Positions 16,982 through 17,584 of a stretch of DNA of 64,000 nt are shown piece after piece. How positions within the stretch are numbered: position 1 is the stretch's first letter; the number at the start of each line of letters is the position of its first letter. The stretch lies in assembly GCF_003334255.1 (NCBI RefSeq), contig NZ_QOWU01000018.1; one strand, given 5' to 3'. The notes beneath the pieces were generated by a model. It was not told the DNA's origin and did not search any database. It saw nothing but the letters and a program-made list of their open reading frames with translations. The DNA is from Escherichia coli. Lineage in GTDB: Bacteria > Pseudomonadota > Gammaproteobacteria > Enterobacterales > Enterobacteriaceae. A program made the translations under genes and the position numbers.

Positions 16982-17209
16982 ATGCGTTTAATTGTGGTGA
17001 GCATCATGGTGACCTTGCTGAGTGGCTGTGGCAGCATTATTAGTCGCACTATACCGGGGCAGGGGCATGGCAACCAATATTATCCCGGTGTGCAATGGGA
17101 TGTGCGTGACTCCGCCTGGCGTTATGTCACGATCCTTGATCTGCCATTCTCTCTGGTTTTTGATACTTTACTGCTGCCGATCGACATTCATCATGGCCCG
17201 TATGAGTGA
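16982..17209 (+). CDS. yceK: Lipoprotein YceK
   Basis: 75 aa, lipobox LLSGC. Confidence 0.9.
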   Translation: MRLIVVSIMVTLLSGCGSIISRTIPGQGHGNQYYPGVQWDVRDSAWRYVTILDLPFSLVFDTLLLPIDIHHGPYE

Positions 17210-17584
17210 TTAACGTTCATCCCACTCATCAGCTGCTGCGCGTCCTTCCTCGGTATCCAGCGGTGGCTCAAGCTGAAATTCCCCCTCGTCCCATTCATGT
17301 AATGTATTCTCTTCCTGCCACTCCTGGCGTATCTCTATCTCATCATAGTCGCCATCAAAAACACTTTGCGCGGCTTCACCGCTAAGCATAGGTAAACATT
17401 CACCTTCTTCCCCTTCGTCGGCAAAAAACTCAACTTGCCACATGATGTCGCCGTCCTGCAAAACGTATTTTTGGGCATTGAACTGTTGCACATTCGCATC
17501 TTCGGCGTCGATGCCGGGGTTGTCTGCAAGAAATTCTTCGCGTGCAGCGTCAATGGCTTCTTCAAGCGTTGCGTACATGGTCAT
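17210..17584 (-). CDS. msyB: Acidic protein MsyB
   Basis: ORF 17210..17587 begins MMTMYATLEE; second ATG taken as start (124 aa); highly acidic composition. Confidence 0.88.
   Translation of the reverse strand: MTMYATLEEAIDAAREEFLADNPGIDAEDANVQQFNAQKYVLQDGDIMWQVEFFADEGEEGECLPMLSGEAAQSVFDGDYDEIEIRQEWQEENTLHEWDEGEFQLEPPLDTEEGRAAADEWDER

Follow-up and report, generated by a model that had tools for sequence, protein, structure and literature searches.

Arrangement of the yceK–msyB locus

The window analyzed here, meaning the whole 64,000-nt stretch of Escherichia coli DNA, contains a pair of convergent genes, yceK and msyB. The plus-strand gene yceK (16982..17209) encodes a 75-residue lipoprotein of the YceK/YidQ family (NCBIfam NF007555), and the minus-strand gene msyB (17210..17584) encodes an acidic protein of 124 residues (NCBIfam NF008544). 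Both coding sequences (CDSs) are given by the open reading frame (ORF) list and by RefSeq. The minus-strand msyB ORF spans 17210..17587 in the ORF list, with the annotated ATG start codon at 17584.

The plus-strand stop codon of yceK is the TGA at 17207-17209, and the TAA stop codon of msyB is the reverse complement of 17210-17212. The junction (17207..17212) reads TGA followed directly by TTA, with 0 nt between the two stop codons. The letters at 17201-17216 are tatgagTGATTAacgt, and those at 17201-17219 are tatgagTGATTAacgttca. MG1655 shows the same layout in RefSeq, where yceK occupies 1113579..1113806 (+) and msyB 1113807..1114181 (−). Over 16001-19500 the window differs from MG1655 by three SNPs and no indels, and subtracting 1096597 from an MG1655 coordinate gives the window coordinate. 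The abutment of the stop codons without any spacer, to which the first-pass annotation had drawn attention, was borne out by the sequence, the ORF list and the RefSeq annotation of MG1655.

The msyB-strand transcript and its 3' end

A candidate sigma-S-type promoter for msyB lies on the minus strand at 17623..17649. It is composed of TTGCAA (17649-17644), a 15-nt spacer and GCTATCCT (17630-17623). Alignment of 80 related loci showed that the consensus upstream of msyB, cTTGCAaaa...tcaGCTATtCTTTccCtgaA, is kept in most of them. In sigma-S promoters, the TAT(A/T/C)CT box typically has a C immediately before it. The msyB start site is predicted near 17616, and the upstream sequence points to a promoter belonging to msyB itself, and not merely to co-transcription with mdtG. 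If the candidate promoter is right, the msyB mRNA would be about 0.68 kb long. According to a preprint, msyB mRNA is induced >20-fold on entry into stationary phase.

In our own scan, the first hairpin with a T-run on the minus strand was located 253-274 nt past the msyB stop codon. It belongs to a two-way intrinsic terminator (16931..16968), in which an A-run and a T-run flank the hairpin ATACCGGC-GTTAT-GCCGGTAT (16939-16959) on opposite sides. Read on the minus strand from 16959 down to 16931, the element is ATACCGGC-ATAAC-GCCGGTAT followed by TTTTATTG. U-tracts are present on both strands, TTTTTTT (+) and TTTTATTG (−). Fold energies of −16.4 (+) and −16.9 (−) kcal/mol were calculated for the hairpin, with z = −3.6 and −4.2, respectively. 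The element sits in the spacer between opgH and yceK; on the msyB strand this is beyond the yceK start codon.

In a TRS re-analysis of the Term-seq data of Dar and Sorek (PMC10687069), a minus-strand 3' end was mapped to 1113527-1113535, the dominant position being 1113530, which is 16933 in the window. The end at 1113530 was classed as "IGR yceK.opgH", with a signal of 0.67 and significance in two of the three replicates. The primary 3' end of opgH on the plus strand was placed at 1113557-1113568, that is, 16960-16971 (PMC10687069). Both mapped ends fall in the U-tracts of the 16939-16959 hairpin. The minus-strand end at 16933 is 276 nt beyond the msyB stop codon, with all of yceK in between. 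No such minus-strand end is included among the 3' ends curated by Adams et al. 2021 (PMC7815308).

A comparable hairpin was found in about 73 of the 76 loci examined, at a distance of 14-71 nt past the start codon of yceK. Among 28 distinct versions of the hairpin, alignment showed compensatory double changes in three of the ten pairs (U-A to A-U, A-U to G-C and G-C to A-U), no broken core pair and a freely varying loop. A hairpin with U-tracts, 3' ends on both strands and evolutionary upkeep, as looked for in a two-way intrinsic terminator, were all found. The symmetric GC-rich hairpin, the A-run and T-run flanks, the 3' ends on both strands and the compensatory changes are shared with known bidirectional intrinsic terminators. 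The element differs from these in that the units using it, opgGH and msyB, are not neighbors, the whole of yceK lying between the terminator and msyB. A further difference is its closeness to yceK, whose start codon follows after only about 14 nt.

We infer that the 3' end at 16933 belongs to msyB transcripts. The nearest upstream minus-strand genes are msyB and mdtG, and the lpxL transcript stops short of mdtG, at 1115546 (PMC10687069). The msyB stop codon, the lack of an earlier terminator and the mapped 3' end together point to an msyB 3' UTR of about 277 nt (16933..17209, minus strand). This 3' UTR would be antisense to the entire yceK CDS as well as to its start codon and ribosome-binding site.

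About 50 nt beyond the two-way terminator on the msyB strand, within a region of REP elements (16810-16930), an Rfam match to the sRNA ES036 (CssrF) was detected at 16841-16883 on the minus strand. It scored 47.9 bits against a gathering threshold of 37.6 and was the only such match in the window. A second minus-strand hairpin with a T-run is present at 16850-16812. The ES036-like RNA may arise from the msyB transcript by read-through or processing. A literature search on the name ES036 gave nothing about the RNA.

The yceK-strand transcript

An intrinsic terminator further downstream of yceK was considered and rejected: scanning of about 900 nt past the yceK stop codon in E. coli for a hairpin with a T-run gave none. 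Other genera showed only weak and inconsistently placed hairpins on the yceK strand. In nine loci, a weak hairpin, CACCCTCATCCCATTCATGGAGGGTG then TTTTCTTC, was seen about 72-78 nt past the yceK stop codon, inside the msyB CDS, with fold energies of −7.5 to −10 kcal/mol. The hosts are Lelliottia, Silvania, Atlantibacter, some Enterobacter and one Citrobacter isolate; E. coli is without it. The hairpin might act as a weak intrinsic terminator in these hosts.

The continuation of the yceK-strand RNA (17210..17451, plus strand) is untranslated, antisense to msyB, rich in C and poor in G, and it ends in a Rho-dependent region. Over the 241 nt past the yceK stop codon, C makes up 33.6% and G 16.2%. 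The C–G skew at 17210-17449 (0.36) ranked first among 6376 segments of 240 nt taken from both strands of the 64-kb window, and the skew was 0.20-0.36 in all 69 species tested. Asp and Glu together account for 38 of the 124 residues of MsyB (31%). Because codons for these residues abound, and the complements of GAN codons are NTC, the antisense RNA of msyB is C-rich and G-poor.

A plus-strand Rho region antisense to msyB was mapped at 1114048, corresponding to 17451, by Adams et al. 2021 (PMC7815308, supplementary file 2). Coverage upstream and downstream of 1114048 was 74 and 11 without bicyclomycin and 87 and 69 with it (Rho score 5.3, p = 4e-7; PMC7815308). The score uses 800-nt windows, and 17451 is to be taken as an approximate termination point. 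The signal may include read-through from opgGH besides yceK-specific transcripts. The bicyclomycin read-through shows that the plus strand is Rho-dependent. With the untranslated, rut-like RNA, both features looked for in a Rho-dependent terminator were found. Loading of Rho at rut sites on the msyB antisense RNA is suggested by the composition of this RNA.

Plus-strand Rho regions antisense to a convergent minus-strand gene are recorded at four approximate positions of the window (PMC7815308): 4453 (ycdZ/csgG), 17451 (yceK/msyB), 21388 (trhO/yceI) and 33150 (murJ/flgN). With four convergent pairs showing an antisense Rho region, the arrangement is therefore the local norm. In 2012, Peters and colleagues reportedly described how Rho suppresses antisense and read-through transcription in E. 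coli. The yceK strand resembles that system in its untranslated C-rich and G-poor antisense RNA and its bicyclomycin-sensitive read-through, and the same pattern occurs at the three other pairs. No essential difference was seen; the C-richness is extreme here, the opposite strand encoding a protein with 31% Asp and Glu.

Transcript overlap and possible regulation

With ends at about 16933 and 17451, the yceK and msyB RNAs are complementary over approximately 480 nt. The ExcludonFinder study (NAR 2025, PMC12288877) lists yceK-msyB among 165 core convergent excludons of MG1655. Of 58 MG1655 RNA-seq data sets, at least half must show overlapping transcripts for a pair to qualify. The pairs clsC-opgC, murJ-flgN, yidQ-yidR and cbrA-dgoT are on the same list (PMC12288877). 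The predicted overlap is thus on record for yceK-msyB already, and the pair apparently has never been studied by itself in the literature.

Tail-to-tail orientation and transcript overlap, as looked for in a convergent excludon, were both found. The pair, itself on the list (PMC12288877), has the short spacer and overlapping transcripts of the class, with a terminator inside or beyond the partner gene. The overlap is unusually complete by comparison, in that the msyB 3' UTR spans the whole neighboring gene. Moreover, excludons are defined by opposing expression, which was not seen here; yceK and msyB rise together in two transcriptome studies. Inhibition of LolCDE raised msyB 4.45- and 8.10-fold and yceK 4.09- and 8.00-fold in directional RNA-seq libraries. 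In a PFAS study, both genes were among only seven that changed with both compounds. These parallel changes come from studies neither of which was designed to test opposition, and strand-wise counting of the reads was not established. In Salmonella, yceK is induced by bile together with genes of the RpoS regulon.

The two genes appear to be co-induced and not mutually exclusive. Their parallel induction may reflect shared stress control. Alternatively, if the counts ignored strand, reads from the msyB 3' UTR could have been credited to yceK.

The joint movement of the genes under LolCDE inhibition and with both PFAS compounds bears on the possibility that the overlap is a selected device, a functional excludon. 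Sigma-S-induced msyB RNA, antisense through its 3' UTR to all of yceK including the ribosome-binding site, would then repress yceK by transcriptional interference or by RNase III cleavage of the duplex, and the effect could also act reciprocally. The presence of the pair on the published excludon list and the coverage of the whole of yceK with its start region by the msyB 3' UTR fit such a device; the parallel movement of the two genes speaks against it. Across the family, the genes stay tail to tail and the terminator keeps its place past yceK, which also counts in favor, but conserved protein ends and an absence of insertions explain this conservation as well. A regulatory role of this kind is considered rather unlikely.

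Between the end of the two-way terminator and the yceK ATG there are about 14 nt (16939-16985). The terminator T-run nearly touches the yceK Shine-Dalgarno (SD) sequence aagagg (16970-16975). The same was seen in over 70 species of Enterobacteriaceae, with T-run and SD sequence directly adjoining in Enterobacter. The space left past the terminator is too small for a classical yceK promoter. Citrobacter and Salmonella carry a TATACT or TATACA box after the T-run.

It is improbable that the family-wide layout as a whole, with a terminator near the yceK ribosome-binding site, a yceK gene without an obvious promoter and a sigma-S msyB antisense RNA, is one selected regulatory module. If it were, yceK expression would depend on read-through of the opgH terminator or on initiation at it. 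Stationary-phase transcription of msyB would gate yceK through antisense pairing or polymerase interference, and the HU antagonist MsyB would be linked to an outer-membrane lipoprotein.

Possible role of Rho on the msyB strand

The composition of the msyB 3' UTR was considered with respect to Rho. This RNA is untranslated and its distal 140 nt have a C/G ratio of 1.68, which would suit a scheme in which msyB transcripts end mostly through Rho within the yceK antisense region, the 16939-16959 hairpin catching only leak-through. The modest signal of the minus-strand Term-seq end and its significance in two of three replicates would also suit that scheme. The first 110 nt past the msyB stop codon, however, are G-rich (C/G 0.86), and the 3' end was mapped exactly to the U-tract of the hairpin. 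In addition, the data of Adams et al. hold no minus-strand Rho region at 1113200-1113999, although they come from exponential-phase cells, in which msyB is poorly expressed. Termination mainly by Rho on this strand is accordingly held to be unlikely, and termination at the two-way hairpin is preferred. Rho may nonetheless contribute on the msyB strand too, given the moderately C-rich distal half of the 3' UTR.

Absence of a terminator at the junction

A terminator hidden at the junction itself was rejected as a candidate on the basis of folding and two pattern scans. Folds of 17195-17300 (+) and 17120-17225 (−) were no more stable than those of shuffled sequences (z = 0.13 and 0.97), and the two pattern scans, run on both strands, found no terminator-like site at or near the junction. 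The first of these scans missed the 16939-16959 hairpin on the plus strand, apparently by extending the stem into the A/T runs, and a separate scan for a hairpin plus T-run was used. No known RNA family was found among those sought at the junction.

These results weigh on the idea of a collision, in which RNA polymerases arriving from both sides run into each other at the gene boundary and are thereby released. Collisions must occur whenever both genes are transcribed simultaneously, and the pair, being convergent and without a spacer or separate terminators, resembles the collision-driven bidirectional terminators of Ju et al. 2019, which have been described for hundreds of E. coli genes. In this model, a stem-loop between the gene boundaries is needed to position the collision (Ju et al. 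2019, as described in bioRxiv 10.1101/2022.10.23.513370), and the class is described as Rho-independent. The yceK/msyB boundary differs from that description in having no stem-loop. The 3' ends of the two strands are not clustered at the boundary but lie on opposite sides of it, 276 nt (16933) and about 240 nt (~17451) away, and the yceK-strand end is sensitive to bicyclomycin, that is, Rho-dependent. Collision is for these reasons very unlikely as the main mechanism by which the two transcripts end.

The first-pass annotation had also stated that no intergenic DNA is left for separate terminators, and that both transcripts must either run into the opposite gene or terminate inside it. The absence of a terminator at the junction agrees with the folds and the scans. 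Entry of both transcripts into the opposite gene is supported by the minus-strand 3' end at 16933, the plus-strand Rho region at about 17451 and the ExcludonFinder listing. For the msyB RNA the statement can be made more precise: this RNA probably passes all of yceK and stops just beyond the gene, not inside it.

Conservation and frequency of the zero gap

Loci containing msyB were taken from 80 species-representative Enterobacteriaceae genomes, of which 78 have both genes. The C-termini of YceK (...GPYE*) and MsyB (...WDER*) are kept throughout these 78 species. The stop-to-stop gap is 0 nt in 44 species, 1 nt in five, 3 nt in nine and 4 nt in one; in the rest it is 6 nt in nine, 7 nt in seven, 10 nt in one and 27-28 nt in two. 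The gap is thus at most 10 nt in 76 of the 78 species, and the two genes overlap in none.

An 81-nt sequence spanning the junction was found in 5416 of 5426 complete E. coli genomes. In NZ_CP116976.1 (E. coli) only 80 bases match the 81-nt query, which suggests a 1-nt indel nearby. In NZ_AP022105.1 (E. coli) the match is limited to query positions 1-73 and yceK alone is annotated, suggesting that msyB is disrupted in this strain. The abutment is an old and stable feature and no error. The thought that a sequencing or annotation error gave one of the genes a stop codon other than the true protein end, which was the circumstance named at the outset as overturning the observation, was rejected as next to impossible: YceK and MsyB match the curated NCBIfam equivalog models over their whole lengths (1-75 of 75 and 1-124 of 124), their C-terminal residues and stop positions are the same in 78 species, and the junction recurs in 5416 E. 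coli genomes.

The spacing was compared with that of other convergent genes, sampled from this window and one other 8-kb region. The seven convergent protein-coding pairs in the first 50 kb of the window have gaps of 0, 7, 39, 41, 63, 111 and 195 nt, and the gap is 7 nt or less in two of them (clsC/opgC, 7 nt; yceK/msyB, 0 nt). The yceK paralogue yidQ lies tail to tail with yidR at a gap of 1 nt (MG1655 3867728-3870441 region), with a 4-nt overlap between the adjoining cbrA and dgoT. Such tight spacing is common among convergent pairs, and the zero gap is not exceptional.

The genes of the clsC/opgC pair are convergent, clsC (+) ending at 11179 and opgC (−) at 11187, with the gap of 7 nt. The mapped 3' end of opgC, MG1655 1107696, corresponds to 11099 in the window and lies 88 nt within the clsC CDS; this is another terminator embedded in a neighboring gene.

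Explanation of the arrangement

Taken as a whole, the arrangement is probably best explained by transcripts that read on past the junction, with a shared hairpin ending those of the minus strand and Rho those of the plus strand. In the proposed sequence of events, convergent yceK and msyB would have had their conserved C-termini brought together without a spacer, and because of this neither gene has its own terminator at the junction. The msyB RNA probably starts at the conserved sigma-S-like promoter in the mdtG–msyB spacer, as judged from the motif. It would pass its own TAA, cross all 228 nt of yceK in antisense and stop at the 16939-16959 hairpin, the first terminator it meets, which also ends opgH transcripts arriving from the other side. 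The RNA covering yceK would pass the TGA into msyB antisense sequence with no ribosome following it. Rho would load on this C-rich, G-poor RNA and halt its synthesis after no more than about 250 nt.

E. coli usually handles tightly packed convergent genes in this way, with no special device. The observation is real, explained by well-known mechanisms, ordinary and already catalogued, and it has little import beyond good annotation. The locus shows cleanly, and with good conservation, how convergent genes in a compact bacterial genome can do without spacers: the two-way terminator of the next gene serves one strand, and Rho, aided by the C-rich antisense of an acidic-protein gene, serves the other.

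For work on either gene, the msyB 3' UTR can be mistaken for yceK signal wherever expression was measured without regard to strand. Changing yceK by deletion or insertion alters the msyB 3' UTR as well, and msyB deletions remove the Rho stop of yceK-strand transcription.

Other RNA matches in the window

Three tandem Rfam matches to RtT RNA were detected at 425-923 on the minus strand, each with a score of 46.3 bits against a gathering threshold of 45. They are spaced by 181 nt and adjoin the serX tRNA at 968-1055.
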